The translations under genes and the position numbers were made by a program. A DNA stretch of 32,000 nucleotides from Candidatus Lokiarchaeum ossiferum (GTDB taxonomy: Archaea > Asgardarchaeota > Lokiarchaeia > Sigyniarchaeales > Promethearchaeaceae), in assembly GCA_025839675.1 (NCBI GenBank), contig CP104013.1, forward strand, positions 4,860,001-4,892,000, read 5' to 3'. Within the stretch, counting starts at the first letter, position 1; the number at the start of each line of letters is the position of its first letter. Below are positions 5,622 to 20,799 of the stretch, piece by piece. The notes under the pieces were generated by a model. That model did not search any database. It saw only the letters and a list, made by a program, of their open reading frames with translations, and was not told where the DNA came from.

Positions 5622-8486
5622 CTATAATGTTTCCCTAAATATTTCAATTAGGTTTTTATTCCGAAGTTTTCTCATAATTAACTTCAACCCTAAGTAAAGT
5701 GATAATATTGACACCCCGTAAATAATTCCAACAATATCCCATGGTATTTTTATCATTTGGGGTGTCTGTGTAAATAATGTCATGTTTTCAGATAATCCTA
5801 AAGCCATAATTGTTCCAATTATTCCTCCCGAAGTAGAGGATGCCAATAGAATAATCAAGTTTTCTACTAAAAACAAATTTTCTACTTCACGACCATGCAA
5901 ACCTAAGGTTCTTAAAATTCCTATTTCACGAGTTCTCTCTAAAATAGATGAGTAGGCAGAAGTCAAGAGTCCAAAGATAGCAATAATAATTGTTCCTAAT
6001 TGAATTAACAAAAACATATATTTGATTACTAAAAATTCAGACTCGGCGTATTCGATGTCCTCGCTTGTTCTATCAATTCTGAGATTTTCTTCTTCAAAAA
6101 TAGTTTCTAAATTTTGTTCAATTATGGTGTGATTATATCCTTCTTTGACTTTAACAAAAATCTTGTCTACAAATGCATCATCTCCGCCTGGAATATTTAA
6201 ACATTTTATATAATTTATATTGGACATGATAACTCCTCCTGTTCCTCCTCCAAAAAGGCCTGCTTCTCTAATCCGGGATAAACCTGGACAATTTTTAAGA
6301 ACACCTACTACTTTACAAATATATGCGCTTTCTTCTGTTCCTCGAGTGAAGGTTAATCTTGCAAGATCATCTTTTCGGATTTTTAATTGACTTGCAGTTG
6401 ATGAAGATATAATGATGTTAATGATCTCTTGATTTTCCTCAAAAATCTGGCTGAATGCTTCATCTTTGTTTCCAGTGGCAAAAACCAAATGAGACTGCAT
6501 CTCTGTTGAGATTGTATCCTTAAAATTTTTATCTATTCCATAGAGCCATATATTGGTGGATGTAAAATCGATATAATCCCCCATGGTGACTCCAAAATCT
6601 TTATTTTCTTCTGAGTAAATATTTTCAAGATCATTTGTTGATGCTAGTAAGGATGATGCTCTCTCAATACCCTCGACTTGCATTATTTGCTCTTGCAATT
6701 CAACAGTGGGTGCATTAATATTATAAGTGCGGGGGCGAATCACAATATCAGATCCACTTTCATAGGCAATTAAGCCTCCAATTTGATTTACTTGAATTTC
6801 CACCATACTAGTCGCGAACATGATGAAACTGAAACTAAGTATAAACATAATAATTGTGCTTAAATTTCGACGTTGGTGGCGATGAATTGTGATTTTAACA
6901 ATATTCATAATTTTTTGCATCAAAGGTTCGAAAATCATCACCAGCAATTTTAAAAAGAAGGGCATTATTCCAACTGCCATTAAAGATACTCCAACTAAAA
7001 ATGTAACAAGTGTTCCCACTAAGATACTTGCTAATAATGCAATTTTAAGTGACAGCATTATTTTTGGAAGTAAAAAGAATACAAAACCACTGTTGGCAGC
7101 TACAAAGAATCCAAAGACAATCAATTTTACATTTGCACTACCTTCTTTTTTAATTTTATATAATTCATCACTATGACGATAAGGGTTTATGGATTCTACT
7201 ATGCTCATTCGCATTACTTTTACTGCGGGGGCTATTGATACAATTAGACTAACGCCGATACCGATTAAATAACTCATCAAAATGGATGTTGGTTGTGCCA
7301 CAAAAACAATATTTGACGCATAACCGTCAGGTATTTCTCTTTCTAACAATGTAAGCGCGACTTTATCAACAAATATTCCTGCGCCGAATATTCCCAATGT
7401 GGTTCCAATTAAAATTATGAGCATTGCTTGCAAAACAACTAACTTTATGTTGTAACTCTTTCTGGCTCCTAAAACTCGATTGATCCCATATTCTCGTATT
7501 CGCTCTTCAACCGATGTAGATAAAATTCCATTTATTAAAATTCCGCTGATCAACATTGAAACAAATCCAATTACGACAAATAATATATTCATTCCCAATG
7601 AGAACATTTCAGAGACATAAAGTAATTCTAACTTTGGATACTCAATATTCCATGGATCCAATCCGATTAATAATTGCATGTCTGCCCCTAATTTAGTTAT
7701 TAAAGCTTCTGTGTTTTCAATATCTCGAATATCATAAATATCTTCACCATTTTTGAATATCATGACGAGTGAATTTGTTTTATTAACCCAATCCATTTCT
7801 CTATATGCAACATTATAGAGTTGATTTGCTGTCTCACCCCACCAACTCATATCTACGACTATATCACTTTCGCGTCCAAGTGGAAATTTCAAATCGGAAT
7901 TAAATCTGCTTAGAATTGTTAAATTTACAGAAGAATTTAACCCTGGTAAAAAAATATTAAATATTTGTCCTTCAGTTAGATTAAATCTCTCCGCAAATTC
8001 CATTTCCACTAAACAACTATTCACCGGGATACCTTCACTTAAATTAAGGGTTGGGGATATATCTATGAATGAACCGAACGAAATATCCTCTTCAAGCTTT
8101 ACATCAAGCGCCCCAAGTTGAGCCCACCTTTCATCTTCCATCGGATTTGATATTGACCCATTTGTTCGGCCCCACATTGTTGTTCTTGGGAGAAAATGTT
8201 CTATTTCGTCAAATTCCTCATGAATTAAGGCTTTAATATTGGGATAATCAAAATAATCTGATCTATTTTCTTCTTCCCCTGCATAATGTCGAACCGAGAG
8301 TCGTAGGTCTTGGTTTCCGCAATCTGCCGTTAAAAAATCAATAAATCCGTATGAAACAGAATCTGTTATAAAAGAGACGGAGGTAAGCAAGAATAAACTA
8401 ACTGCAATCCCCATTACTCCTAAAATTGTTCGAGTTTTTTGTCTAAATAAATCTTTAAAGGCGTACGAATAGAGAAATGAATCCAT
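5622..8486 (-). CDS. ABC transporter permease, fused double FtsX module (MacB/LolCE/FtsX type VII ABC family) with two large extracytoplasmic domains
   Basis: Two FtsX-type signatures: RIREYGINRVLGARKSYNIKLVVLQAMLIILIGTTLG and RTREIGILRTLGLHGREVENLFLVENLIILLASSTSGGIIG. Each follows a ~250-aa non-hydrophobic segment flanked by TM helices. I prefer ATG 8486 (MDSFLYSYAFKDLFRQKTR..., with GAGGA 7 nt upstream) over the track's TTG 8504. Confidence 0.85.
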   Translation of the reverse strand: MDSFLYSYAFKDLFRQKTRTILGVMGIAVSLFLLTSVSFITDSVSYGFIDFLTADCGNQDLRLSVRHYAGEEENRSDYFDYPNIKALIHEEFDEIEHFLPRTTMWGRTNGSISNPMEDERWAQLGALDVKLEEDISFGSFIDISPTLNLSEGIPVNSCLVEMEFAERFNLTEGQIFNIFLPGLNSSVNLTILSRFNSDLKFPLGRESDIVVDMSWWGETANQLYNVAYREMDWVNKTNSLVMIFKNGEDIYDIRDIENTEALITKLGADMQLLIGLDPWNIEYPKLELLYVSEMFSLGMNILFVVIGFVSMLISGILINGILSTSVEERIREYGINRVLGARKSYNIKLVVLQAMLIILIGTTLGIFGAGIFVDKVALTLLEREIPDGYASNIVFVAQPTSILMSYLIGIGVSLIVSIAPAVKVMRMSIVESINPYRHSDELYKIKKEGSANVKLIVFGFFVAANSGFVFFLLPKIMLSLKIALLASILVGTLVTFLVGVSLMAVGIMPFFLKLLVMIFEPLMQKIMNIVKITIHRHQRRNLSTIIMFILSFSFIMFATSMVEIQVNQIGGLIAYESGSDIVIRPRTYNINAPTVELQEQIMQVEGIERASSLLASTNDLENIYSEENKDFGVTMGDYIDFTSTNIWLYGIDKNFKDTISTEMQSHLVFATGNKDEAFSQIFEENQEIINIIISSSTASQLKIRKDDLARLTFTRGTEESAYICKVVGVLKNCPGLSRIREAGLFGGGTGGVIMSNINYIKCLNIPGGDDAFVDKIFVKVKEGYNHTIIEQNLETIFEEENLRIDRTSEDIEYAESEFLVIKYMFLLIQLGTIIIAIFGLLTSAYSSILERTREIGILRTLGLHGREVENLFLVENLIILLASSTSGGIIGTIMALGLSENMTLFTQTPQMIKIPWDIVGIIYGVSILSLYLGLKLIMRKLRNKNLIEIFRETL

Positions 8487-8500
8487 TTTGCTTTCCTCAA

Positions 8501-9529
8501 TCAATCATCGAGATTTGATCTTTCCTTGGATATGTATAAAACACCGCTGTTGATTTTTCCTTTGATATCTTCCTTCTCAACTAATTCTGCCATTAGATCA
8601 TCAAAATGTAATGGGAGATTGCTGATAATATCTGGATTTATTTGTTCTCTAATTTTAGAGAATCTTATCTCATAATTATGGTCTTTAATAGACTCGCGAA
8701 CTGTTTTTAATATTTCAACTTCACATTTTTCCTTGTATTTTGCTTGTAAATCCAATCTCGCAGAGCGCATTTCTTCTGTCTCTTTTAATCCCGAAACTTC
8801 GAGTCCTTTAACTATTTTCCCATCTCTAATATGGACAATACGCGTGCAATATTCTGAAACTGCTGCATCATGGGTTGCAGCAATAAATGTGGCTCCTTTT
8901 CTATTTAAATCTCTTAATAAGTTAAGAATTTCAATTCCTGTTTTTGAATCTAAATCACCCGTAGGCTCGTCCAGCATAACAATGGACGGATCATTAGCAA
9001 AAGCACGGGCAATGGCAACTCTTTGTTGTTCTCCTCCTGATAACTCGGATGGTGTGTGGTGTGCCCGTTCATCTAACTTTACTAATTTTAAAAGTTCCAT
9101 TGCCTTGCGTTTACGTGCTCTTTTAGATAATGTACCTTGAAAATGTAATGGGATCATAACATTTTCCAATGCGCTCAAAAGGGGTAAGAGATTATAAAAT
9201 TGGAAAACATAACCGATCTTATCTCGTCGTAAATCCGCAAGTTGATTTTCATTCAATCGGCTCATGTCCTGTCCATCAAGATAGATTTTACCCCGAGTGG
9301 GATAATCTAAACCACCAATTAAGTTGAGGAGAGTTGTTTTTCCACATCCGCTAGGTCCCATTAGCCCGGTAAATTCTCCCGGTTTAATTTTTAAATCGAT
9401 TCCTCGAAGTGCAGGAACGGCAGTAGCCCCGAGAAGGTAAGTTTTATGCACTCCTTCTACTAAGATTTTATAAGGCGTATTGATGGTTGAAATATCATCA
9501 GTTTTACTAATTGGTTTTTTGATTACCAT
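8501..9529 (-). CDS. ABC transporter ATP-binding protein (MacB/LolD/FtsE-like) with a ~110-aa C-terminal extension
   Basis: Walker A GPSGCGKTT, ABC signature LSGGEQQRVAIARA, Walker B IVMLDEPTGDLD and H-loop AATHD. It lies directly upstream of the FtsX permease. Residues ~235-342 extend beyond the canonical NBD. Confidence 0.92.
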   Translation of the reverse strand: MVIKKPISKTDDISTINTPYKILVEGVHKTYLLGATAVPALRGIDLKIKPGEFTGLMGPSGCGKTTLLNLIGGLDYPTRGKIYLDGQDMSRLNENQLADLRRDKIGYVFQFYNLLPLLSALENVMIPLHFQGTLSKRARKRKAMELLKLVKLDERAHHTPSELSGGEQQRVAIARAFANDPSIVMLDEPTGDLDSKTGIEILNLLRDLNRKGATFIAATHDAAVSEYCTRIVHIRDGKIVKGLEVSGLKETEEMRSARLDLQAKYKEKCEVEILKTVRESIKDHNYEIRFSKIREQINPDIISNLPLHFDDLMAELVEKEDIKGKINSGVLYISKERSNLDD

Positions 9530-9869
9530 GGAGAGTCATCTTTTTTTTTATCAATGGATCAGATATATAGATTCAATCCTAAATGCATTATTTTATTTAA
9601 GACATCACTAAAAAATGACATTGATCGGTTTTTATTAAATGAAAAAAAGTTGATCTAGTTAAAAAACTTATTTCCTTCATTTTTTAAGAAAAAAAGGGGT
9701 GAATTTGTTATGCTTTTAACTTAAATAAAAAAGATAAATATTTTGCAGAATTATAAAATATTCGTTCTGTCGATAATCTTCTCTAAAATCTCAGAAATCT
9801 TCCGATTGGATTATTTGAGAAAAATTGATAAAAATAAAAATGATTTGGGAAAATTATGTTCTCTTTTCA

Positions 9870-11411
9870 TTAAATAAATTGCAGTACATCTTTTTCAATA
9901 AGTGAGAAACCTTGTGCATCTTCAGCCAAAATTGTTTCTAATAATTTCACCTTCAGTGATTTTATCTGCAATTGGCTTTCCATGCTAAGAGCATTTTCAT
10001 CAACTTGATTAAGTTTACTGTATATTCCTTTTGCCTCATTTAAATCAAAGGGAGTAATGTCTGACGTTATTTTCAAATACTTTGCAACAATGGATTTAAT
10101 GAGATCAACAGCATCAGGAATAAAATCCAAAAATTTCGTGGCATTGCCTGTTTTCATAAAACTCGCTAAATAAGGCTCATAATTCTGCATAAAATCTTCA
10201 AACATTATCGAAAAATCTTCCTTAACAAACTCCATATCCAAATCTGGGTGGGTGAAAATTGTTAAAGTTAGATTTTTTTTCGAGAGTGAAGACATTTTTA
10301 TATTCCCTCCTTGAACTCGAAAGCTAGATAGATCTTGAACATTTATTTCTTCAGCAAATTTAGACATTGCATTCAAAAACATTGGAATTAATTCTAAATC
10401 AAATTGGGGATTATCGGCTTTATTCAATGCGTCTCTCAAAGAACATTTCTTTGTTTCTGCAACAATCAACGTTTTTCCATTAGAATCACTGATCATAATG
10501 CCGTAAATTAATTTTTCTGGTTCAAATTTCTGGTCTTCACTCACTGGGGCTGCTTTTTTGCTAGCCAGATCCTTATTAGAGAGATCCAAGAATGATTTTA
10601 AGACTTGTTCGTAATATACCTCACCTTTTTCTGTTAAATAGACCAGGGTTTGTTTATCCATTTTTTTAGTTCTTAGAAAATTTGCTGTCTCATAAGAGCT
10701 AATTAAGGTTTGTAAAGTTGATTTTGAAGTTTCAAGATTCGATATCAGCCGTTCTAAACTTAAAACTTTTTGAGTTTTCAATGTATTGAAGAGATTAATA
10801 TTTAATTGAATAAGTTTTGTGTCCATTTCACCTTCATTATCAAGTCCCGATTTTCTGAAAACATCTACAAATGCATTGATTGTTGTGTAAAGATGTTCTG
10901 GCTTAATGGAAGTATAATATATGTTTAAATCTGTTTTGTAGTTCTTTTTTATTTCCTTTTTATAAGCTTCAATATGATCTTTAATTTTTAATAATTGAAT
11001 TTCATCAATTAAATCAATTTTATGGATAAGAAAGAAAATATTTGCTTGTTTGGATTGAACTGGTTGTAAAGCAATTGCTTTTCTTATATAATCAACAGTG
11101 ATTTTTGGAGCATGCCTTGAATCCAAGATATTTAAAATTATATCACTATCATTGAAAACATTTTTATCTTCAGAAAACCATCTTTCTTGTTCTTGACCTG
11201 CTAAGTCAAAAACACCTAAGTTTTGTAATAAATTATACGAATAGTTTTCAAATCCATAAGTTGGTTCAATAGGATTTTCTAACAACTTAAATAATGATTC
11301 TCCTTCAAATAACCATTTCCGGATAGTTGATTTTCCAACACCCGAAGGTCCAACAAATACAATTTTTTTTGACAGTATAGATCTCTTCCTTTTAATTGAA
11401 TGTAATAACAA
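9870..11411 (-). CDS. Rag/Gtr-like small GTPase with a central winged-helix-like segment and a C-terminal roadblock/LC7-like domain (513 aa)
   Basis: G1 GPSGVGKS (aa 21-28), G2 region EPTYG, G3 DLAGQE (aa 69-74). G4 is HKID rather than NKxD (aa 130-133, in IFFLIHKIDL). G5 region is YYTSIKPEHLY. HKxD and TSI..E.LY match my recollection of RagA (IFCLVHKMDL, FRTSIWDETLY). Residues ~216-270 (LSLERLISNLETSKSTLQTLISSYETANFLRTKKMDKQTLVYLTEKGEVYY) look like a wHTH. Residues ~300-400 show a beta-alpha-beta-beta-alpha roadblock-like pattern (LIYGIMISDSNGKTLIVAE...LTLTIFTHP). Confidence 0.72.
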   Translation of the reverse strand: MLLHSIKRKRSILSKKIVFVGPSGVGKSTIRKWLFEGESLFKLLENPIEPTYGFENYSYNLLQNLGVFDLAGQEQERWFSEDKNVFNDSDIILNILDSRHAPKITVDYIRKAIALQPVQSKQANIFFLIHKIDLIDEIQLLKIKDHIEAYKKEIKKNYKTDLNIYYTSIKPEHLYTTINAFVDVFRKSGLDNEGEMDTKLIQLNINLFNTLKTQKVLSLERLISNLETSKSTLQTLISSYETANFLRTKKMDKQTLVYLTEKGEVYYEQVLKSFLDLSNKDLASKKAAPVSEDQKFEPEKLIYGIMISDSNGKTLIVAETKKCSLRDALNKADNPQFDLELIPMFLNAMSKFAEEINVQDLSSFRVQGGNIKMSSLSKKNLTLTIFTHPDLDMEFVKEDFSIMFEDFMQNYEPYLASFMKTGNATKFLDFIPDAVDLIKSIVAKYLKITSDITPFDLNEAKGIYSKLNQVDENALSMESQLQIKSLKVKLLETILAEDAQGFSLIEKDVLQFI

Positions 11412-11412
11412 C

Positions 11413-11766
11413 TTATTGATTCTTTTTTTTCAAATCTGTAATTGAACTTTTTAAATCGGATATCCCATCACGATATTTTTGATTTAATCGTTTAAATTCT
11501 TGTTCAAGTTTGATTATCTCATTTAGTAGGGGGTTTTTAATAATTTCTGTTTTATATTTTGATATAACTTTTTTCAATTTATAATTTTGGTCTACATAAA
11601 TGATGGAACAAATTTCTTCGCTTGATAAATCTTTTTTGTGAATGTGAACTACTGGAAATGGTTTTTTTTTAAATTTTGGGTTGTTGGAGTGTAAAATCTT
11701 GTGAGTATGTTCTTTTTTACATAATTCACAAAAATATGTAATATTTATCTCTTTCTCAACAGCCAT
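11413..11766 (-). CDS. Hypothetical small protein: N-terminal Cys/His cluster plus C-terminal coiled coil
   Basis: 117-aa ORF whose stop lies 1 nt from the start of the Rag-like gene (likely co-translated). It contains CELCKKEHTHKILH (C-x2-C-x3-H-x-H-x3-H). The C-terminal heptad-like segment is IIKLEQEFKRLNQKYRDGISDLKSSITDLKKK. No family recognised. Confidence 0.5.
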   Translation of the reverse strand: MAVEKEINITYFCELCKKEHTHKILHSNNPKFKKKPFPVVHIHKKDLSSEEICSIIYVDQNYKLKKVISKYKTEIIKNPLLNEIIKLEQEFKRLNQKYRDGISDLKSSITDLKKKNQ

Positions 11767-11884
11767 TCAAAAACTTCCTATTTTTATACCTTTGTTTGGT
11801 CCTAACTTTGTTTTATTTATTGCTTTTAGAAATCTTTTGAGAAAAATTAGAAAATATTTTGTAAATTAAAAATTAGAGAAAAAA

Positions 11885-13348
11885 TTAGTTATTTGAATTC
11901 CAGGACATTTTCTTTCGAATACCACCTATGCCTTTTAATTTCAATGCGTTGGCCATTTGAACGGTTTCTTCAATCGTATGAGCACATGGAATGTGCTGAA
12001 GTTCTAAAGCGTCTCGAATTAAGTCATATTTTGGAGTCCAAGGAACATAGGCAATGATTGGTTTTTTGTATTTATTTCCAACTTTGTTGATAGCTCTCCC
12101 TAAACCCATGGTTAACTGCGGTACTTGAGGTACCAATAAAGTTAGTATCATTTCAACATTTGGAGCATTAAACAAGTATTCCAGAATATTCACAATATCG
12201 TCGTCTGTTCCTGATCCAGTAATATCTATTGGATTGTTAAGTCCTGCAATTCGAGATGCAATTGGATTCAATAAAAATGATATGTCTTCTTTTTGTCTTT
12301 CTGTGAATTTTGTAAGGCCTAAACCATATTTGTCCAAGAGATCTGCACAAAGAACGCCGTGTCCTCCTGATACTGATAAAACTGCAATTCTATCCCCATG
12401 AATGGCCATAGTTGAATATTTTCTGAATGGATTTGCAAGCATAGAGTAGGTTTTCAATGTCATCTGCAGATCTTGTTCGTTAATTGGGTTTACAATACTA
12501 TATTGTTTGTAAGCTCCCTTCATAATGCTACCGTCTGCGGCTAAAGAGCCTGTGTGTGAACCTGCTGCCGCTTTTCCTGCAGAAGTTGTCCCTCCCGAAT
12601 AAACAACCACGTCTTTTCGAGATTTTCGTGCCTCTTCACAGAAACGTCTTCCATCTCCCAAATGAAAGCCTTCCAAGTAAAATGTGATGACGTCTGTGGT
12701 ATTATCTTTTTCAAAATATTTAAGGAGCATCGCTTCGTTCACCATTGCTTTGTTCCCAATGGATACAGCTGTGCTTACACCAATATTTCGTTCTTTGAGA
12801 CTAATAAAAAATTGATCAATTAAAACTCCTCCACTTTGGCTAATTACAGCAACATTTCCCGCTTTTGGTTTAACCAATCGTTCAGATGGGAGAAATAATG
12901 TGTCTAATATCGGAGGACTGTATATACCGACGCAATTTGGGCCTATGAAAGGCATATTATAATCAGAGCATATCTTAACTAATTCATTTTGCATTTTCAT
13001 ACCTTCCCGCCCTGCTTCACTGAACCCTCCTGCAATAATAACTGCTCCCTTAACACCTAATTCTGCTGCCTCTTGAATCACACTTTTAGTATTCTTGGCG
13101 CTAACGGCAACTACTGCTAGATCTGGAATTTCTGGTAACTTATCAAATGACCGGTAAACTTTATGGCCATCAATTTCATCAGCACGTGGTGTTATTCCAT
13201 AGGTTTTAACACTCATTTCCATAAGATTTTTAGAAAATATGGCATTTCCAGGGTTGTCCGAATTTCTGGTCGAGAGGCCTATTACGGCCATTGACTTAGG
13301 TTTAAAGATGAAATCCAAATTATATTGCTGATCGTCATCTGATGGCAT
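11885..13348 (-). CDS. acdA: Acetyl-CoA synthetase (ADP-forming) alpha subunit / CoA-binding succinyl-CoA-synthetase-like protein
   Basis: CoA-binding N-terminus (KSMAVIGLS...NPGNAIF), LAVVAVSAKNT, GVKGAVIIAGGFSEAG, FIGPNCVGIYSP and VAVISQSGGV. The phospho-histidine motif AAAGSHTGSLAA is present. Length is typical of archaeal ACD alpha. No beta (ATP-grasp) subunit is adjacent. Confidence 0.85.
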   Translation of the reverse strand: MPSDDDQQYNLDFIFKPKSMAVIGLSTRNSDNPGNAIFSKNLMEMSVKTYGITPRADEIDGHKVYRSFDKLPEIPDLAVVAVSAKNTKSVIQEAAELGVKGAVIIAGGFSEAGREGMKMQNELVKICSDYNMPFIGPNCVGIYSPPILDTLFLPSERLVKPKAGNVAVISQSGGVLIDQFFISLKERNIGVSTAVSIGNKAMVNEAMLLKYFEKDNTTDVITFYLEGFHLGDGRRFCEEARKSRKDVVVYSGGTTSAGKAAAGSHTGSLAADGSIMKGAYKQYSIVNPINEQDLQMTLKTYSMLANPFRKYSTMAIHGDRIAVLSVSGGHGVLCADLLDKYGLGLTKFTERQKEDISFLLNPIASRIAGLNNPIDITGSGTDDDIVNILEYLFNAPNVEMILTLLVPQVPQLTMGLGRAINKVGNKYKKPIIAYVPWTPKYDLIRDALELQHIPCAHTIEETVQMANALKLKGIGGIRKKMSWNSNN

Positions 13349-13496
13349 AAAGAAAATAAATCTTGCGCAAAAATTAAATCTTCCGAACTAATATCCTTAA
13401 CATTGAATTTACGTGCAATTTGAATGAAACCGAAATAAGTTTCGTATTAAGTGATCAAAAAACCAAATTACCATCGGAAAAAAATTGAAAAAATTC

Positions 13497-13671
13497 TGTT
13501 GAAAAACTTAGAAATCTTTTACTTTTTAATGGAATTTTCCATCAAAAAGTTTGCAAACAGATGGTATTAAATATTTTGTTGAAAAAAAAAACTTAGGAAA
13601 CTCAACATACAAAAAATGGAATTTCAAATGAGATTGTTTTTTTTTTGTACCGAAATGTTGCAAACAGATGG
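13497..13671. repeat. Degenerate tandem duplication of a three-part promoter-region module, upstream of and overlapping the start of the RHH-like ORF
   Basis: Module copy 1: tgttgaaaaacttagaaa (13497-13514), aatggaattt (13528-13537), ttgcaaacagatgg (13551-13564). Copy 2: tgttgaaaaaaaaaacttaggaaa (13577-13600), aatggaattt (13615-13624), ttgcaaacagatgg (13658-13671). The last atg of copy 2 is the ORF start at 13668. Copy 1 contains the perfect 10-bp palindrome gtttgcaaac. Confidence 0.7.
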
Positions 13672-13910
13672 AAACACTTGATAAAGGCGAGAAAATGACT
13701 AAAAATTTGAATTTGAAGGTTGATGAAAGTTTATTTTATGAATTTCATAGACTTAAAGGATTATTAAGGGCGGGAACAAATCAAGATTGTTTAAGGAAAT
13801 TACTTCAGATATCGGATGAAAAAATGAAAGATTTTGAGTTTAAACCAGATCGGGATGAGTATTTAAAAACTTTGGATCTGAAATATGTTCCTCTTTCTGA
13901 GAAAATTTAA
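13668..13910 (+). CDS. Small hypothetical protein, possibly ribbon-helix-helix (CopG/Arc-like) DNA binder
   Basis: 80-aa ORF with an alternative start at ATG 13695 (MTKNLNLK...). The pattern is a beta-strand (KNLNLKVDESL), a helix (FYEFHRLKGLL), a turn and a helix (CLRKLLQISDEKM). It is followed by a T11 run at 13930-13940. The family assignment is inference only. Confidence 0.45.
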   Translation: METLDKGEKMTKNLNLKVDESLFYEFHRLKGLLRAGTNQDCLRKLLQISDEKMKDFEFKPDRDEYLKTLDLKYVPLSEKI

Positions 13911-13929
13911 AGATATCTTGTAGATCTAA

Positions 13930-13940
13930 TTTTTTTTTTT
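13930..13940 (+). terminator. Oligo-T tract (T11) after the RHH-like ORF
   Basis: A T11 run lies 20 nt after stop 13908-13910, preceded by the short palindromes agatatct and agatct. Confidence 0.45.
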
Positions 13941-14050
13941 CCATAGTTTTATTCAAAACTTTTTCTCACATTACTTACATTGGTTTATGAAAATGTTTAT
14001 AGGGTTCGTAATTCATGTTTCATTATAGAAAAAGAAAGGTATAGTAAAAA

Positions 14051-15520
14051 ATGTCTAATCTTAATTCGAATGAAGTTTCCATTCCACCAGAAATTATTGA
14101 TACTTTTAAAAAAACGGGGTTAGGATATTCTTGGTTGATCAAAGGACAAGCGGGAGTAGGGAAAACAACCTTCGCTCTTAGTCTATTACACTTTTTTAAA
14201 AAATATGAGCCTATATATTTATCCACGCGTGTGGCTCCTGCGAGCATATATGCACAATTTCCTTTTTTGGAAGGCAGATTGCAGGATTTTAACATTTTGG
14301 ATGCAACAAGGACTTATATTCCTCCCGTAAATCAACCTGAGCGTATGAAAGATCATTTGAACAATACTCTTAGGTTTTCATCAGTTCCCGATTTCTTAAA
14401 AATAATATACGAAAAAGTGGCACAATATGAATCCCCCGTTATAGTAATTGATTCTTGGGATGCGATTGTTGGTCAAAGTAATGATGAAAGGAAAAATATT
14501 GAAACCTTATTAACTGAATACATCCGCAACACTAATGCAAAATTGATCTTTATTGCTGAATCTGATAGTATAAGCCTTTTGGATTTTATTGTTGATGGTA
14601 TTCTTACTCTCAAGGATGAATCCGTCGCGGGAAGAACCCTTCGAACAATCGAAATAAATAAAATTCGTGCTGTGGAACGCCGTCAAAAAGCGTATGCATA
14701 TACTTTATTCAATAATCAATTCCAATATATTTCTCTCTTTGAAAAGGATAAACAAATCCCAATAACACCTTTTGAAATAACAACGGATAAAAACGATTTA
14801 TTTTCAACAGGAAATGCACCTTTAGATGAGATTTATAATGGAGGTTTACGTCCAGGAACTTTTAATTTATTAGAAGTAGAATCAACCGTTCCAATATCAT
14901 CAATTTCATCGATCTTCATTGGCATGTTATGTCAATTTATTCAACAAGGAAGAGGTGCTATTGTACACACGACTGATGGGATTAATTCTGATTTAATTGA
15001 CAAGAAACGCCTATTTCTCTATTTACAAACAGATACCATTAGTAGAAACATGCGAATACTACAAACTCAAATCAGCGATAGAAAAGAGATTCGCCCTTAT
15101 ATTCGGTTGGTTGACGATGTTTCATACAATGATATCTTTTTTGATACATATTCGAAATTATCAAGTATTTCCAAATTTCAACCTGTATTTGCTGGAATTT
15201 CTTATGATTCCTTACAGTTTATGGTCGATTTTAATAAAGCAATGCGCGATTTCGAGAATCATTTAAAATTAATTAGGAATTCCAATGTGATTGAATTAGG
15301 TATCATTAATTCTACTTCCCCAGGGCAAGCTAAAGCGTCTCAAGATTTGGGAGCATTAACAACAAATTTATCATATATTGCTTCTACACATATAAAAGTG
15401 ATAGAAAGACACGGCTCCATATTTTTGTATGCGATTAAGCCAAGAAGCTCTTGTCTTTTTGCTATGAAGACAAATTATGATAAAGGGTTTCCTCAGATTG
15501 AATTGTTACCTGTTGTTTAA
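14051..15520 (+). CDS. KaiC/GvpD-like RecA-superfamily ATPase, tandem-domain, with a degenerate second nucleotide-binding domain
   Basis: Domain 1 has IPPEIIDTFKKTGLGYSWLIKGQAGVGKTTFALSLL (Walker A, aa 32-39) and a Walker B-like VIVIDSWD (aa 130-136). Domain 2 starts with the KaiC-type lead-in STGNAPLDEIYNGGLRPGTFNLL. Its P-loop position reads EVESTVPISS, with no GKT. Confidence 0.75.
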   Translation: MSNLNSNEVSIPPEIIDTFKKTGLGYSWLIKGQAGVGKTTFALSLLHFFKKYEPIYLSTRVAPASIYAQFPFLEGRLQDFNILDATRTYIPPVNQPERMKDHLNNTLRFSSVPDFLKIIYEKVAQYESPVIVIDSWDAIVGQSNDERKNIETLLTEYIRNTNAKLIFIAESDSISLLDFIVDGILTLKDESVAGRTLRTIEINKIRAVERRQKAYAYTLFNNQFQYISLFEKDKQIPITPFEITTDKNDLFSTGNAPLDEIYNGGLRPGTFNLLEVESTVPISSISSIFIGMLCQFIQQGRGAIVHTTDGINSDLIDKKRLFLYLQTDTISRNMRILQTQISDRKEIRPYIRLVDDVSYNDIFFDTYSKLSSISKFQPVFAGISYDSLQFMVDFNKAMRDFENHLKLIRNSNVIELGIINSTSPGQAKASQDLGALTTNLSYIASTHIKVIERHGSIFLYAIKPRSSCLFAMKTNYDKGFPQIELLPVV

Positions 15521-15523
15521 GAC

Positions 15524-15530
15524 GAGGTGA
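15524..15530 (+). promoter_or_regulatory. Shine-Dalgarno sequence of the Rab-like GTPase gene
   Basis: GAGGTGA lies 4 nt upstream of ATG 15535, in the 14-nt spacer after the KaiC-like gene. Confidence 0.6.
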
Positions 15531-15534
15531 GAAA

Positions 15535-16035
15535 ATGAATATACAAAGAAAAGTGTGCCTTCTTGGTTCTGATGGTGTTGGAAAAACTTCTATTATTGTC
15601 AGATATACTAAGGGAACTTTTTCAAATTCTTATCTAGTAACTCTAGGCGTTGACTTTTACGAAGTGAAATTTTCCAATCCAAAAACCTCTGATATGCTTT
15701 CAACCCAAATTTGGGATTTGGCATCACAGAAAAATTTTCAATTCATGAGAGCACAGTATCTTTCCTATGCAAATTATATTATTATTGTAGTCGATGCGAT
15801 GAGGCATGCTGATGAATATATTGTCCCATGGATTAACGATGTTCGGAAACATGCTGGTAAAGAAGTTCCTTATATAATAGTTTTAAACAAAGTTGATTTG
15901 ATAGATGCTGAGACATCTAAAAATTTGGTTTTAAGATTGAAAAATCAATTCAATGTTCCTATTTTTAATACTTCCGCTAAAACAGGGGAAAATATTCATG
16001 AAATCTTTGAATATGTCGCTGAATGTCTTTGGTAA
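15535..16035 (+). CDS. Rab/Ras-like small GTPase (166 aa) with a non-canonical switch II (DLASQ)
   Basis: G1 GSDGVGKT, a Rab-like switch I TLGVDF, G3 WDLASQK (canonical is WDTAGQE), G4 NKVD and G5 TSAKTG. The strong SD GAGGTGA (15524-15530) lies 4 nt before the ATG and 14 nt after the KaiC-like stop. Confidence 0.88.
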   Translation: MNIQRKVCLLGSDGVGKTSIIVRYTKGTFSNSYLVTLGVDFYEVKFSNPKTSDMLSTQIWDLASQKNFQFMRAQYLSYANYIIIVVDAMRHADEYIVPWINDVRKHAGKEVPYIIVLNKVDLIDAETSKNLVLRLKNQFNVPIFNTSAKTGENIHEIFEYVAECLW

Positions 16036-16301
16036 CGAATCTTTTTTAAATGCAATATTTTTGTTAAGATATTTCTAATTAAAATTCTTATCAAAAAATC
16101 ACTCTTTTTCTTAAAATTTAAGTATATAATCAATTGGTTCTAAATTCTTTATGAAAGTGGTTTAAAGGAAAAATGGTAGACTGTTGATTATCATTTTTAA
16201 TCATCTATTTAAATTGAAATTTAAAGTCTCCCTTCAATATTTAAAAACCCATCCTTAAATAATAGTTCATCTCCAAAAAAAATAATTTGTATCAGGATAG
16301 A

Positions 16302-17639
16302 ATGGAAATGGTAATTGGATTAGTATTAACTCATTGGGACACCCAGTTAGGTCCTTTAATAATGGCAAGATATCCAAATAATTTTCAAGTATCTAAAGAT
16401 GAAATCAACAAAATATTAATGACACATTCAATTTCTAAAGAGATGACAAATGAAATAGTCGAAATTCGTTTGAAAGAAAAAATTTTTCTCAGTTATTGTC
16501 CAAAAAAGCAAATTCCAGTCAATGGATATTCTATGATGATTATTGTTCTCCATTTAAATGAAGAATTATTGTTTGATGGAATAAAAAATCAATTAAATGA
16601 AATTGGTGAAAATTTATTCAATCGTTCTGGTAATGAGCAAATTAAAGAATTTCACCAGTATGCATCCAAATTTTTTCAAAAAAAATCATCACGAAAAATA
16701 TTATTTATAGGATCTAGCGCAGTAGGTAAAACTTCAATTAAAAAACTATTTTTTGAGGGAATACCTTCTGAATCTCTTTTGGATTTGCCCCTTGAACCAA
16801 CTTATGGATTAGTACAATTTAATTATGATTGGCTAGATTTGGATCTTGGTGTTGCAGATCTGGCAGGTCAGGAAATGGACCATTTTTTAAACGAATCATT
16901 CGAATCGGAGATTGATCCATTTGATTCTGTTGATGCAATTCTCTACATCTTCGATTCAACTTATTGGGATACAAATTCTCGTGAAATCGTACAACATATA
17001 CAGAAGATTCTAGACATAAATACAAGTAGAGATCTAAAATCCCAGTTTTTTGTTTTTTGTCACAAACTGGATTTAATTCCAACTTATGATCAACAATCCT
17101 TCAAGAATGAAATAAAATATACCTTGCCAGCATCGGTTCAGTCTAATCTCTTTTTTACAAGCATTAAATCTGACATGCTCCATCAACTAATTAGATCAAT
17201 GCAAGTAGTAATTGGTACCCTCTCACCACAAACCAATTATCTCGAAGAAATATTATTTGAGACTATTTCAGAAAAAAGGAATACTGCAGTAATTATTTTA
17301 AATGAAAAAAGAATTTTACTAAGTGCTTCGACTGAAGATTTTAAAATAATTAACTATTCTCACATCTTTTCATTCATTTCATCAATGAATTTGCTTCTCG
17401 ATGATTTCAAAAGTGAATTCACTCAATTACAACTTAAAGGAAACCGTTTTAATTTGCATTTTTCCTCGATAGAATGGTTGTCAGAGGGTGAATGTATCAT
17501 TTTAATTAGTGAATGCTTATCTTTTAAGGAATTAAGTCTACTAAAAGAGAGTATTCAATATAGTTTAATATATTTAGAAACTTCCTACGAAAAATCTTCA
17601 GATAATCTAAACATAGATCAAAAAAATTCATCCAAATAA
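16302..17639 (+). CDS. Three-domain protein: folliculin-like longin domain, Rag/Gtr-like GTPase and a Rag-CTD-like roadblock domain
   Basis: The track starts at TTG 16287. I prefer ATG 16302 (MEMVIGLVLTHWDTQLGP), by analogy with the N-terminus of the 163-aa paralogous domain at 30544. GTPase motifs: G1 GSSAVGKT (16710-16733), EPTYG, DLAGQE (16857-), HKLD (17061-17072, in FVFCHKLDLI) and FFTSIKSDMLH. The C-terminal ~115 aa alternate helix and strand in the same order as the RagA C-terminal roadblock domain (LEEILFETISEKRNTAVIILNEKRILLSAS...FTQLQLKGNRFNLHFSSI...ECIILISEC...). Confidence 0.72.
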   Translation: MEMVIGLVLTHWDTQLGPLIMARYPNNFQVSKDEINKILMTHSISKEMTNEIVEIRLKEKIFLSYCPKKQIPVNGYSMMIIVLHLNEELLFDGIKNQLNEIGENLFNRSGNEQIKEFHQYASKFFQKKSSRKILFIGSSAVGKTSIKKLFFEGIPSESLLDLPLEPTYGLVQFNYDWLDLDLGVADLAGQEMDHFLNESFESEIDPFDSVDAILYIFDSTYWDTNSREIVQHIQKILDINTSRDLKSQFFVFCHKLDLIPTYDQQSFKNEIKYTLPASVQSNLFFTSIKSDMLHQLIRSMQVVIGTLSPQTNYLEEILFETISEKRNTAVIILNEKRILLSASTEDFKIINYSHIFSFISSMNLLLDDFKSEFTQLQLKGNRFNLHFSSIEWLSEGECIILISECLSFKELSLLKESIQYSLIYLETSYEKSSDNLNIDQKNSSK

Positions 17640-17651
17640 AGGTAAATCCAA

Positions 17652-18314
17652 ATGAGCATTAATAAAAACAATTCAAAATTAAAAAAAAATTCCGATATTG
17701 CAGTTCCCAGAGAAGTTAAAAATAAGGTAACTTTGCGAATTGAAAATGTCGTAGCTAGCGTAAAAGTGGGCACTTTTATAGATCTCAATAAACTATTAGA
17801 AAAATATAAAGATATTGAAAAGAAAGAAAATTTTCCAGGATTAGTCGTAAAAATGAAAAATCCTAAGGCAACCATATTGATTTTCTCTTCTGGTAAGATG
17901 GTGGCCACAGGTGTTCGACTTGTCAAACATCTTCCCATAGTTGTGGAAAAAGTCGTCAAAAAGATGGAAAATGCAGGGATTGAAATTGAGATGGAACCAG
18001 AGGTAAAAATTGAAAATATCGTTGTGCGTGGAGATTTCCATCAAACTATAAATCTCGATTTAACCTCCTTATCTTTAACTCGGGCAATTTATGAACCTGA
18101 AGTTTTTCCTGGATTAATTTATAAAATACCTGATCCAAAAATATGCTTCCTCATTTTTAGTTCAGGTCGAATTATCTGTACAGGTGCGAGTGATGAAAAT
18201 GTTATCCGAAGTTCAGTAAAAAAACTTGCTTTAGATTTAAAACGGCAAGGTGTACTCGGAAATACTAAAAAAAAAGTAGGTCAATTAGATCTTGATTTAC
18301 TGGACTTGTTCTAA
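17652..18314 (+). CDS. tbp: TATA-box binding protein (TBP) with a ~30-aa basic N-terminal extension
   Basis: Two TBP repeats: IENVVASVKVGTFIDLNKL...NFPGLVVKMKNPKATILIFSSGKMVATG and IENIVVRGDFHQTINLDLTSL...YEPEVFPGLIYKIPDPKICFLIFSSGRIICTGA. Acidic/hydrophobic tail LDLDLLDLF. The start is 12 nt after the stop of the upstream Rag-like gene. Confidence 0.93.
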   Translation: MSINKNNSKLKKNSDIAVPREVKNKVTLRIENVVASVKVGTFIDLNKLLEKYKDIEKKENFPGLVVKMKNPKATILIFSSGKMVATGVRLVKHLPIVVEKVVKKMENAGIEIEMEPEVKIENIVVRGDFHQTINLDLTSLSLTRAIYEPEVFPGLIYKIPDPKICFLIFSSGRIICTGASDENVIRSSVKKLALDLKRQGVLGNTKKKVGQLDLDLLDLF

Positions 18315-18658
18315 TGGTTTTTTTTTGGTATCATGCATATAAATGATACAGGTACTTCATTCTCATTAACATAGCCATGAGGTTCATTTGGTGGCATATA
18401 AACAAATTCGTTCTTAACAAGTTTTTCTTTTTCTCCATCGTTTGTTAGTAGGAACATTTCCCCAGAAAGAATATACATTTCATGTTCCCAAGGATGTTGA
18501 TGGATCCCAATTTTTCCACCTGGGGCTATTTCAAATCTCCGCATTATAAAATTTGGGGCTTCTTCTTCCGAAATAAATACTCGAATATTGGTGCCTGTGG
18601 ACTCAAATGCTGTTACTTCTGTAGGTTCAATTTTTTTGAAATGAAAGTGTTTTGCCAT
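18311..18658 (-). CDS. Cupin domain protein
   Basis: The cupin metal-binding motifs are G-x5-HxH-x3-E (GGKIGIHQHPWEHEMY) and P-x-N-x-PHG (PPNEPHGYVN). 115 aa. Its 3' end overlaps the TBP 3' end by 4 nt in convergent orientation. Confidence 0.85.
   Translation of the reverse strand: MAKHFHFKKIEPTEVTAFESTGTNIRVFISEEEAPNFIMRRFEIAPGGKIGIHQHPWEHEMYILSGEMFLLTNDGEKEKLVKNEFVYMPPNEPHGYVNENEVPVSFICMIPKKNH
18318..18326 (+). terminator. Oligo-T tract (T9) 4 nt after the TBP stop, embedded in the 3' end of the convergent cupin CDS
   Basis: The plus strand reads taa tgg ttttttttt gg. The same bases encode PKKN of the cupin on the minus strand. Confidence 0.4.
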
Positions 18659-18663
18659 TGTTT

Positions 18664-20337
18664 TTATTCTCCTTTATCCAAATTCTGTGTCTGGTTTTCC
18701 AAGTCACTCAAAGTAGATTCGCGTTCTTTAATTATTTCTTCAATATGTGTCTGAATTTCATTCTTTTCTTCAGTTTTTTGTGATATTTCATGTTCTTTTT
18801 TTTCAATATCGCTTTCCAATTCAAAGATGCGGTCTTGGAGCTCAGTTAACATTATTTCCAAATTTAATTTCTCATTTAATACCTTTTGCCTATCATCATT
18901 AATTGTTTTTATCTGAGCAGTGAGCATTTTGTTTTTTTCATCTGTTTCCTTAATGGATTGTGCTAATAGATTATTCTCTTCAAAATATTCATTAATAGTT
19001 TCTCTTAATTTTTCCATTTCTTCCCCATGGTTATTCTCAATTTGGACTTTCTGCTCTTTTTCTGATTCTATAGCTGCTAAATTCTTTATCAAATCTTCGT
19101 TGGCATTAGTAAGTTTATTAATGATAAATTGGAATTTTTCTTCTTTTTTCTTGGAAAGTTGGTTAACTTCATTTAACTGAAAATCAAGTTTTTCTTTTTG
19201 TTTTTGAATTTCTTTAATTTTTGTATCTTTCTGTGCGAGTTGGAGAGTTAAACTATCAGTAACCAACAAAATTTGATCTTGTAATCGAGAGTTTTCTTCT
19301 TCTAAGTGATCATATTTTTGAATTTTCTGCCGAAGTTCTATGATTTCCGTTCTTAACTTTTCTAAATTTGGAGTGTTATCAATTTGATTTGGTTGTTCTG
19401 AAAGCAAATCTGCATCTTTTGGTGACATTTGAGGGGTTATTAATGGTGCAGGTGCCGGTTTCGGCTTTGGAGTTGATTTAATTCCATCTCCTGAAAGTGG
19501 TATTGGATCTGGATTGCTTGGGCTAACATTAGCTGGAAGAGGCCTTCCAAATAAATCTCTTTTAATAGTGGCAGATTCTTGTTGTTCTGCTTCAGGTCTA
19601 GGATTAAAATCAATAATTGTTTCTAAATCTAATTCATTTTCAATCTCATCTTGGATTTTTTTTTGTTTAATACTTTCACGAAATTTAGCCACTGTTTCTG
19701 GTTCTTGTTTTTCTTCCTCATTATCATCGAGGGGTGATTTTCGGGGATGAAATTCTGTTTCACCTGTTCGTATTGCTGGTAGATTTTTAATCTGAACTGG
19801 ATCCTTTCCATTTTTAATTTCAGTAATTATATATTCCATTTGACGTTCATGAGCTAAAATCAAACCCTGTTCTTCAATATCCACTATATTTATATAAAAT
19901 GCAAATTGGCCTTTGACAATTGTATCATATACAATTATTTGGGGCTCAATTGGATTTTTGAACACGTATTTCATATTTTCCATTGGAATTAATTCTAATC
20001 GTAATCCTGCCATCAGTTTTTGGAGATATTGAAGCAATTCAGCACGAGGTTTTATTATTTTGGAGAATTCACTTGATAGATAAGATACTATATTTGGAAA
20101 ATCTTTTGGAAGGATACATTTTCCAGTGTTTTCACTTTTCTCAATTGCCTTATCATAATCTTTTTTCTTTCCTTTTACTTTTTTTACTGGGGGTTCCAAT
20201 ACAATAAATAATAAACCACTACCTGATCGAGTGTTGTATCTTTCAATTTTATATCCAAAACCTGGTGCTGGTGTTGAATTCGATGCTATACGGACATAAA
20301 GGTGATGTATTCGGCTGATTGCGGTAGTTAGATCCAT
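18664..20337 (-). CDS. Hypothetical protein: ~190-aa N-terminal globular domain, acidic/Pro-rich linker, ~230-aa C-terminal coiled coil
   Basis: 557-aa ORF. The linker reads PSNPDPIPLSGDGIKSTPKPKPAPAPLITPQMSP. The C-terminal half is K/E/Q/L-rich with heptad character (LRTEIIELRQKIQKYDHLEEENSRLQDQ...). No TM segment and no recognised catalytic motif. Confidence 0.6.
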   Translation of the reverse strand: MDLTTAISRIHHLYVRIASNSTPAPGFGYKIERYNTRSGSGLLFIVLEPPVKKVKGKKKDYDKAIEKSENTGKCILPKDFPNIVSYLSSEFSKIIKPRAELLQYLQKLMAGLRLELIPMENMKYVFKNPIEPQIIVYDTIVKGQFAFYINIVDIEEQGLILAHERQMEYIITEIKNGKDPVQIKNLPAIRTGETEFHPRKSPLDDNEEEKQEPETVAKFRESIKQKKIQDEIENELDLETIIDFNPRPEAEQQESATIKRDLFGRPLPANVSPSNPDPIPLSGDGIKSTPKPKPAPAPLITPQMSPKDADLLSEQPNQIDNTPNLEKLRTEIIELRQKIQKYDHLEEENSRLQDQILLVTDSLTLQLAQKDTKIKEIQKQKEKLDFQLNEVNQLSKKKEEKFQFIINKLTNANEDLIKNLAAIESEKEQKVQIENNHGEEMEKLRETINEYFEENNLLAQSIKETDEKNKMLTAQIKTINDDRQKVLNEKLNLEIMLTELQDRIFELESDIEKKEHEISQKTEEKNEIQTHIEEIIKERESTLSDLENQTQNLDKGE

Positions 20338-20349
20338 TTTTTTCCCTAT

Positions 20350-20799
20350 TTATTTTTCATTACAAAATATTTGACAGATATTTGTTAATTCTTCTTGCAA
20401 AAATTCAATTGGTAATTCTTTGAAATTTTCTAAAAGTACAACCCTATCTGAATCCGAAATTGCTTCCAATTCTTTCAAAAATTGATTTAATATTATTTCC
20501 TTTTGTTCTGGTGCAATTTTAATCTGCTTCAAGGTTTTGGCTACTTTGATGACATAATTTATATCGTTTTGACTTAACGATTTTCCTTCAGGTGATATTT
20601 CTGAAATTTGATTAAAATTGAGCCAAGGTGCAATTTGATTTATCGACATTGAATAACTATTACGAATCATCTCTTCTCTTGTGTCTTGTTCAATTTTGGA
20701 AAGATTCTTTAGTAGTTTTTTTTGAAAATTTCGTAACTGTTCAATATTTTTTCTGATTGCATCTTTAGAAGACATTATATTATCTATCCATTTGCTCAT
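20350..20799 (-). CDS. Hypothetical alpha-helical protein (149 aa)
   Basis: The ORF is tightly spaced between the divergent TBP paralogue (56 nt upstream) and the coiled-coil gene (12 nt downstream). No motif recognised. Confidence 0.5.
   Translation of the reverse strand: MSKWIDNIMSSKDAIRKNIEQLRNFQKKLLKNLSKIEQDTREEMIRNSYSMSINQIAPWLNFNQISEISPEGKSLSQNDINYVIKVAKTLKQIKIAPEQKEIILNQFLKELEAISDSDRVVLLENFKELPIEFLQEELTNICQIFCNEK

Follow-up and report, generated by a model that had tools for sequence, protein, structure and literature searches.

Two kinds of described system come closest to a set of genes in a 32,000-nucleotide (nt) stretch of lokiarchaeal DNA (the whole stretch is hereafter the window), which encodes two Rag-family GTPases, here called G and A, and a free folliculin-type longin candidate of 163 amino acids (aa). 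These are the Rag/Gtr GTPases, which form heterodimers (RagA/B with RagC/D; Gtr1 with Gtr2), and the longin complexes FLCN-FNIP, NPRL2-NPRL3 of GATOR1 and C9orf72-SMCR8. A GP motif in the β1-β2 loop and an arginine finger are hallmarks of longins of the GTPase-activating protein (GAP) type, namely FLCN, NPRL2, SMCR8 and C9orf72; the arginine finger of SMCR8 is R147, and W33-D34 and G38-P39 of C9orf72 are described as essential (PMC12290439). The same 2025 survey described Asgard longins with the GP motif and the arginine, and posed as a question whether their client GTPases are Arf-related or Rag/Gtr. Asgard RagGtr GTPases are already well documented, and the PDB holds crystal structures of two Lokiarchaeal Rag-like proteins. 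Tran et al. 2024 (PMC10933270) catalogued the architectures LG, LGR and GR in strain MK-D1, predicted with AlphaFold2 (AF2) a roadblock-roadblock heterodimer for one operon-encoded pair of MK-D1 Rag-like proteins, and found GTPase genes to lie generally outside longin/roadblock operons. Both G and A are identical to proteins of the Candidatus Lokiarchaeum ossiferum genome (G to NEF87_004167, at 100% identity), and the window is therefore part of the chromosome of this cultured Asgard archaeon.

The genes of the window share with the Rag/Gtr heterodimers a Gtr1_RagA-family GTPase domain with HKxD in place of NKxD, a roadblock C-terminal domain (in G) that aligns together with the GTPase along whole-length Gtr1, and the presence of two diverged paralogues encoded together. 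They differ in that G adds an N-terminal longin and A an inserted winged helix and a helical tail, and in that archaea offer no TOR or Ragulator context. Compared with the longin GAP complexes and the Asgard GP-motif longins, the 163-aa protein likewise has GP in the β1-β2 loop and an arginine at the FLCN R164 position, the WDxxxGP motif of G is spaced as in C9orf72, and longin genes adjoin or are fused with Rag-family GTPase genes. Unlike those complexes, the lokiarchaeal proteins have the longin domain only, with no DENN module, their similarity to Pfam Folliculin is sub-threshold, and one longin shares a polypeptide, in cis, with the GTPase that is its presumed client. The MK-D1 Rag-like GTPases termed 'LGR', 'LG' and 'GR', and LokiRagO and LokiRagM (PMC10933270; PDB 8yl2, 8zla and 9m28), belong to the same phylum and have the same longin-GTPase-roadblock design, but the proteins in these PDB entries show no detectable sequence kinship to A or G (they are absent among phmmer matches at E<=1). 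In the bacterial MglA-MglB system a small GTPase is also regulated by an adjacently encoded dimer of roadblock/longin fold; here, by contrast, the GTPases are of the Rag family, the platform domains are fused to the GTPase, and a folliculin-type longin carries the candidate arginine finger.

The best reading of our data is that folliculin-type longins regulate Rag-family GTPases in Lokiarchaeia, probably as GAPs. The literature already covers the domain architectures and the GP-motif longins of Asgard archaea. The conserved pairings of genes described below appear to be new: in the searchable literature we found no description of an operon of G-type and A-type genes, of an operon of a folliculin-type longin and a Rag plus winged-helix gene, or of a C9orf72-like WD motif in a fused longin.

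Architecture and relationship of the G-type and A-type proteins

The preliminary description of this DNA had proposed two Rag-like paralogues of different architecture, and this proved right. Both proteins match Pfam Gtr1_RagA well above its cut-off of 22 bits (G, 67.5 bits, E 1.5e-18; A, 52.6 bits, E 5e-14), and Gtr1_RagA is the best family in 11 out of 11 members of the G family and 28 out of 28 of the A family. By sequence, the best solved relatives of both are Gtr1 and RagA. The GTPase motifs are GSSAVGKTS, DLAGQE and HKLD in G, and GPSGVGKST, DLAGQE and HKID in A. In HMMER alignments the G4 motifs HKLD and HKID align with HKMD of RagA and Gtr1, and the switch II motif DLAGQE aligns with their DCGGQ. 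H130, K131 and D133 are invariant in the A family; K253 and D255 are invariant in the G family, where the G4 histidine is replaced by asparagine in two members.

Domain boundaries are listed in Table 1. The AF2 model of G (pLDDT 79, predicted local distance difference test) reads ββ-α-βββ-α-α, GTPase, α-ββ-α-βββ-α. Its N-terminus has, in the model, a longin fold, with strands at residues 2-11 and 15-22, a helix at 30-42, strands at 49-55, 58-64 and 75-82, and helices at 83-103 and 108-124 (pLDDT ~70-86). Residues 3-297 of Schizosaccharomyces pombe Gtr1, the full-length protein with its roadblock, align with G. Foldseek searches with the G model ranked full-length Gtr1, RagA and RagC first (E down to 4.5e-18, target-normalised TM-score 0.70-0.73), and also found the Lokiarchaeal Rag-like structures 8yl2, 8zla and 9m28.

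The N-terminal sequence of G, MVIGLVLTHWDTQLGP, contains the motif WDTQLGP (W10-D11 and G15-P16), with the same spacing as W33-D34 and G38-P39 of C9orf72. WDxxxG is kept in 45 of the 47 G-type proteins collected, the proline in only six. As arginine finger we counted an arginine in the loop before β5, where FLCN has R164 and SMCR8 has R147. G has a glutamine at this position. Among 43 distinct G-type sequences the residue is arginine in 25 and lysine in 15, and glutamine occurs only in the L. ossiferum lineage; judged from these sequences, the absence of the arginine is thus particular to this lineage and no general principle of the design. It had earlier been suggested that the locus encodes two FLCN-like longins of which one lacks the arginine, and that together they form an asymmetric longin GAP. 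The first statement holds at the level of motifs in this genome, but the loss is lineage-specific, and the idea of an asymmetric GAP, which rested on it, is not supported.

A is built differently. Its GTPase domain is followed by a winged helix, a disordered linker, a ββ-α-βββ-α domain that is roadblock/longin-like at the level of the predicted fold, and a helical tail (AF2 model, pLDDT 81.5). The winged helix is modelled as MarR-like (H-b-H-H-wing) with pLDDT >90, and residues 189-279 match a MarR-family protein of the PDB at 7e-4. With the A model, Foldseek again placed full-length Gtr1/RagA on top; the alignments span ~396 columns against targets of 290-300 residues, from which we infer that the GTPase and the C-terminal domain of A both align, around the inserted winged helix. 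The C-terminal domains of A and G match each other weakly in a profile comparison (P 0.009). The roadblock-like C-terminus that had been assigned to both proteins is thus well founded for G, through the Gtr1 alignment and the model, but in A it holds for the predicted fold and not for the sequence.

The free 163-aa protein has 55 conserved relatives. It contains the motif KLGP, with the GP motif at G23-P24, and a candidate arginine finger, R83, within DPLARGG (DPLARGGVQRY). Both the GP and the D..ARG motifs are present in all 34 family members from the fetched loci. The family hidden Markov model (HMM) aligned R83 with R164 of human FLCN; the FLCN sequence used was checked by its length (579) and by the position of R164, which falls at LARG. 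Sub-threshold matches to Pfam Folliculin (PF11704) were obtained for 23 out of 26 family members, the best at 3e-4. On these motifs and the sub-threshold Pfam matches, we treat the protein as a candidate longin that shares a motif with the longin of G. The most distant relatives of the 163-aa protein (P0147-P0150, 145-157 aa) keep KLGP and have lost the ARG motif, so arginine-free versions of the free longin exist.

A and G are 34% identical (E 1e-24), and this similarity is confined to the GTPase domain. To place the split between them we compared the window-type proteins (set 1, A1 and G1) with the proteins encoded in the operons described below (set 2, A2 and G2). Mean identity of the GTPase domains is 39% between A1 and A2, 36% between G1 and G2, and 31% between A1 and G1. 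Neighbour-joining (NJ) trees with 100 bootstrap replicates recovered G1 (99), G2 (94) and RagA with RagC (82) as groups, and a clade of G1 with A1, or of G2 with A2, in none of the 100. These trees are rough, with saturated distances capped, and we used only groupings that were strongly supported or rejected. Since the G1+A1 and G2+A2 clades were never recovered, the sequences place the A/G split before the split between window-type and operon-type proteins. A recent local duplication, which would have undermined the earlier proposal, is ruled out by the GTPase-only similarity and the bootstrap values. Eukaryotic RagA and RagC fall outside the Lokiarchaeal A, G and short-type groups in the crude NJ tree (weak node support, 32/100), and therefore the A/G divergence looks like a duplication parallel to the split between RagA and RagC.

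Conserved gene pairings across Promethearchaeota

We scanned species-representative genomes with the A alignment and annotated all open reading frames (ORFs) of the loci with domain HMMs. In 27 loci of other Promethearchaeota, a G-type gene (longin plus Rag GTPase, ~435 aa) immediately precedes an A-type gene (~510 aa) of the same strand, with gaps of -26 to +38 nt; in L036, for instance, the two genes occupy 8685-10001 and 10004-11545. The stop and start codons of several pairs overlap, and contigs that end within a pair add truncated examples. A second pairing recurs in 17 loci, where the gene directly ahead of a ~292-aa Rag plus winged-helix gene encodes a folliculin-type longin (~225 aa, with GP and ARG), at gaps of -7 to +94 nt. 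Because these pairings recur in other genomes, it is very likely that G-type and A-type proteins are partners in function, and the split between them is old.

The pairings also bear on the question of which GTPases the Asgard longins serve (PMC12290439). They point to Rag-family GTPases as the clients of GP-motif, arginine-finger longins, because such a longin lies upstream of the Rag plus winged-helix gene in the 17 loci and beside the A orthologue in MK-D1, and because a longin with the WD/GP motif is fused to the GTPase in the G type.

In MK-D1 (Promethearchaeum syntrophicum), the A orthologue is DSAG12_01734 (50% identity). The orthologue of the 163-aa gene, DSAG12_01735, lies 343 nt upstream on the same strand and is preceded by a malic enzyme gene. 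The other flank holds the same cluster as in the window, namely genes for an ATP-binding cassette (ABC) ATPase, an FtsX permease, a giant protein and an S8 peptidase. No acdA-like, KaiC-like or Ras-like gene lies beside the A orthologue of MK-D1. The order A, ABC ATPase, FtsX, ~1300-aa TRAP_beta/CARDB-like protein, S8 peptidase is always found behind A-type genes of set 1, down to 34% identity. This cluster, which lies outside the span 9870-18314, is the most conserved neighbourhood of A; it was also seen in loci L007/L013, L008/L018, L017 and L019.

The preliminary description had asked whether synteny is kept in related genomes, and it is. The order ABC/FtsX, A, acdA-like, KaiC-like, Ras-like, G, coiled-coil protein, 149-aa protein, TBP and, further on, 163-aa gene and malic enzyme recurs in relatives that include one 82%-identical relative and two Harpocratesius genomes. 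A and G keep their relative position in the seven G1-type loci that reach A (L001-L005, L010 and L014, Harpocratesius included). The KaiC-like gene E adjoins G in the eight G1-type loci fetched with their upstream flank (L001-L006, L010 and L014), and the order E-F-G, where F is the Ras-like gene, is kept as well. Scanning metagenomes with the G alignment yielded a single locus, L079, in which the gene order is the same and the ORFs match in size and order. Since the genomes of this clade are collinear over >20 kb, with obviously unrelated genes included, this conservation says little about function. The acdA-like, KaiC-like, Ras-like and TBP genes, which accompany G in this one collinear clade only, may be bystanders, and the earlier proposal that the 8.5 kb form one functional island is not supported. 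The E-F pair upstream of G, with its gap of 14 nt, is a reasonable candidate for co-function.

The G2-A2 operons are commonly flanked by a gene for a CheY-like receiver and by PAS/GAF histidine kinase genes, which suggests a link between the Rag-like pairs and two-component signalling. In loci L024-L060 the receiver (~123 aa) is divergent and the kinases are convergent (for instance L036, 8149-8520, 11563-13629 and 13680-16595, all on the minus strand).

Other genes recur around these operons. Operons of a longin and a Rag plus winged-helix gene often stand back to back with a gene for a ~490-aa protein, whose residues 108-250 form a GTPase domain and whose C-terminus is of low complexity and rich in Pro/Lys (for instance L036, 16628-18200 on the minus and 18399-19871 on the plus strand; also L051, L052 and L065). 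Near several G2-A2 operons we noted by eye an ORF of ~155 aa that is roadblock/LC7-like (L036, 5146-5601, minus strand, and similar ones in other loci), and one of ~400 aa with a longin/roadblock-like N-terminus followed by a long coiled coil (L036, 5788-7008, minus strand). Typical Lokiarchaeial A-type, G-type and folliculin-longin genes also occur on contigs binned as Patescibacteria (L055), Bathyarchaeota (L050 and L054) and Odinarchaeota (L068 and L069). These are probably mis-binned contigs of metagenome-assembled genomes, although the Odinarchaeota case could be real.

A proposed longin-regulated GTPase pair and the alternatives

Taken with the pairings, the architectures lead us to lean, cautiously, towards G-type and A-type proteins acting as a heteromeric GTPase pair under longin regulation. 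By analogy with RagA/RagC and Gtr1/Gtr2, G and A would join through their C-terminal β-α-β platform domains, and the longin domains would pack against the GTPase domains and determine which nucleotide these carry. In its WD motif the longin fused into G is C9orf72-like; the free folliculin-type longin would act as GAP, the arginine at the FLCN R164 position serving as arginine finger. The winged helix of A might bind DNA or protein, and the ABC exporter cluster beside A is a candidate target.

Several results weigh against this reading. In L. ossiferum, A and G do not belong to one operon: they lie 5 kb apart, at the ends of the divergent strings acdA-B-A and (D)-E-F-G-TBP, and the free longin gene is 19 kb away. 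In MK-D1, no G-type gene is found within 10 kb of the A orthologue. Among the Lokiarchaeal Rag-like proteins in the PDB, 8yl2 is homotetrameric and 8zla and 9m28 are monomeric, and longin-GTPases were modelled as homodimers by Tran et al. 2024 (PMC10933270). Profile searches of Pfam and the PDB with the C-terminal domain of A gave no meaningful match, either to roadblock/longin families or to others. The 163-aa protein itself scores 15 bits against PF11704 (E 0.022), short of the cut-off of 23.3; its profile matched no folliculin in the PDB, and a profile search of 1.84 billion representatives recovered only 19 relatives and no sequence that links the family to eukaryotic folliculin. By sequence, homology between the two longins over the whole domain is not demonstrated, as hhalign aligned the 163-aa family with the G N-terminus over the first 17-20 columns only, at a probability of 7-20%.

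One alternative is that the window holds two independent modules that became adjacent through rearrangement. One would comprise A, the ABC/FtsX exporter, the giant secreted protein, the S8 peptidase and the folliculin-type longin, the other G with the KaiC-like and Ras-like proteins, and the GTPases would form homo-oligomers, as the PDB structures illustrate. The exporter cluster stays behind A to 34% identity; it does so in MK-D1 too, although G, E and F are missing from that neighbourhood. E-F-G form a separate co-directional string. The order malic enzyme, 163-aa gene, A, ABC in MK-D1 contrasts with that in Lokiarchaeum and Harpocratesius, where ~11 kb of extra genes, E, F and G included, separate the 163-aa gene from A. 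Full independence is, however, hard to reconcile with the G2-A2 operons of 27 genomes, in which the two architectures have been selected for co-expression, and we consider this alternative somewhat unlikely, though it deserves to be taken seriously.

A second alternative is that A is a GTP-switched transcription regulator. Through DNA binding by its winged helix it would control neighbouring operons, for example the ABC exporter or the acdA string, and the GTPase and platform domains would serve only for sensing and dimerisation. The confidently modelled MarR-like fold and its PDB match agree with this, as do the same winged helix behind the GTPase in the short, ~292-aa Rag-like proteins and the position of G2-A2 operons among two-component signalling genes. 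On the other hand, the candidate recognition helix of A (residues 230-242, SKSTLQTLISSYE) contains K231 as its only basic residue, and Pfam winged-helix models match few members of the A family, all below threshold. The winged helices of eukaryotic Rag regulators, for example NPRL2/3, mediate protein contacts, which also counts against DNA binding. We regard this explanation as improbable.

Chance clustering, in which the proximity of two Rag-like genes (within 5 kb) and of a longin gene (within 20 kb) would call for no functional account in a genome rich in GTPases, is the least probable of all: Lokiarchaeal genomes do abound in small GTPase genes, many further ORFs of the GTPase, longin and roadblock kinds occur here and there in the fetched loci, and MK-D1 GTPase genes are stated generally not to be in operons with roadblock/longin genes (Tran et al.), but overlapping pairs recur in 27 loci, folliculin-type longin/Rag pairs in 17, and the order of the window is kept across genera, so that the operon statistics already disfavour it.

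If G and A do heterodimerise, the eukaryotic logic of nutrient signalling by two unequal Rags plus a longin GAP would have arisen in the archaeal lineage, or twice. The heteromeric pair could also be part of a complete prokaryotic Rag/longin-GAP switch in Lokiarchaeia, with the C9orf72-like longin built in, a folliculin-like longin bringing an arginine finger in trans, and an output through the winged helix or the exporter. In this full form the proposal is speculative and we think it unlikely. If true, GTPase control in the style of FLCN, GATOR1 and C9orf72-SMCR8, and its coupling to Rag GTPases, would predate eukaryotes and could be studied in cultured L. ossiferum and MK-D1. The analysis names concrete protein pairs from these two organisms that can be expressed and assayed.

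Gene inventory of the window

All the genes listed in the preliminary description are present where it placed them (Table 1). The minus-strand genes at the left, from the S8 peptidase to the acdA-like gene (C), are followed by the plus-strand string from ORF D to TBP. Beyond TBP come a cupin gene, the 557-aa and 149-aa proteins, a second TBP gene, and lipid and sugar genes; further right lie a DAO/Pyr_redox_2/DUF1667 trio, a malic enzyme gene and finally the 163-aa ORF.

Table 1. Genes, domains and motifs of the window with their positions
Feature	Position	Strand	Basis or remark
Partial S8 peptidase	2-1600	-	Pfam and NCBIfam matches
1330-aa TRAP_beta-domain protein	1612-5604	-	Pfam and NCBIfam matches
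FtsX permease	5622-8504	-	Pfam and NCBIfam matches
ABC ATPase	8501-9529	-	Pfam and NCBIfam matches
A-type Rag-like GTPase (A), 513 aa	9870-11411	-	Pfam Gtr1_RagA
A, predicted helical tail, residues 425-512	9876-10139	-	
A, predicted ββ-α-βββ-α roadblock/longin-like domain, residues 302-421	10149-10508	-	
A, predicted winged helix, residues 198-273	10593-10820	-	
A, GTPase domain, residues 15-188	10848-11369	-	
ORF B, 117 aa	11413-11766	-	ORF list; stop 1 nt ahead of A start
Acetate-CoA ligase (ADP-forming) alpha-like gene (C, 'acdA')	11885-13348	-	CoA_binding_2 and Succ_CoA_lig (Pfam)
ORF D, 80 aa	13668-13910	+	In divergent intergenic region
KaiC/GvpD/ArlH-superfamily RecA-like ATPase (E)	14051-15520	+	Pfam
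Ras-superfamily small GTPase (F)	15535-16035	+	Pfam Ras 3.8e-31; starts 14 nt past E stop
G-type Rag-like GTPase (G), 443 aa, NEF87_004167	16308-17639	+	ORF open from TTG at 16287
G, predicted longin domain, residues 1-124	16308-16679	+	
G, Rag GTPase domain, residues 128-305	16689-17222	+	
G, roadblock C-terminal domain, residues 307-432	17226-17603	+	
TBP paralogue	17652-18314	+	Pfam TBP 2.6e-45; NCBIfam TATA-box-binding protein 3e-54; starts 12 nt past G stop
557-aa and 149-aa proteins	18664-20799	-	
Second TBP paralogue	20856-21524	-	
Free folliculin-type longin candidate, 163 aa	30544-31035	+	Motifs, conserved family
163-aa protein, GP motif, G23-P24	30610-30615	+	
163-aa protein, candidate arginine finger, R83	30790-30792	+	

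Some labels that had been given to the genes between A and G needed to be weakened. Gene C carries the domains of its family and matches TIGR02717 (acetate-CoA ligase alpha) at 1e-98, yet under the equivalog cut-off, so the name acdA stands at the family level. It lies upstream of B and A in the same direction, and adjoins A only in loci of the Lokiarchaeum/Harpocratesius type. The description of E as a KaiC/GvpD-like ATPase was borne out, as both Pfam models exceed their cut-offs (GvpD_P-loop 62.2 bits, 8e-17, cut-off 24; KaiC 52.7 bits, 5e-14, cut-off 26.6). Its Walker A motif is GQAGVGKTT, and KaiC entries of the PDB match at 8.5e-6. Because its scores against the NCBIfam KaiC and ArlH equivalog models are all far under the cut-offs, we assign E by sequence to the KaiC/GvpD/ArlH superfamily and not to any one of its families. 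Gene F, introduced as Rab-like, matches the general Pfam Ras model and can be named only as a member of the Ras superfamily; a published analysis is reported to have recovered none of the Asgard sequences as the specific sister of Rabs (bioRxiv 10.1101/2024.02.28.582541).

ORFs B and D have no family match in Pfam or NCBIfam; the label 'RHH-like' given to ORF D is supported by no family search. B contains a C-x2-C / H-x-H stretch and, behind it, a probable coiled coil; it is kept in L001 and L005 at 35-76% identity and absent from Harpocratesius. D is conserved in the same two loci (58-87% identity) and likewise absent in Harpocratesius; its counterpart in L001 (7431-7652, minus strand) is on the opposite strand relative to the flanking genes.

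The earlier report of no mobile-element genes agrees with our scan, in which the ORFs across the window included no transposase-/integrase-type families, and no tRNA was found. A bacterial-type promoter/terminator scan, ill-suited to an archaeon, gave no enrichment, with 41 hits where 44 were expected, and 0 terminators.

The 557-aa protein has no family match, and its C-terminal half is Glu/Lys-rich and probably coiled-coil; the 149-aa protein matches Syndetin_C weakly (7e-4). Both genes are kept convergently downstream of G in the G1-type loci that reach that far, and L079 has ORFs of matching size there. The TBP paralogue downstream of G lies inside the span 9870-18314, where it had gone unmentioned, and adjoins G only in the window, L005 and L006. 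Its protein ends in ...LDLDLLDLF and the 163-aa longin candidate in ...TLDLF (family variants LDLF, LDMF and LNLL), and the two may share a C-terminal short linear motif.

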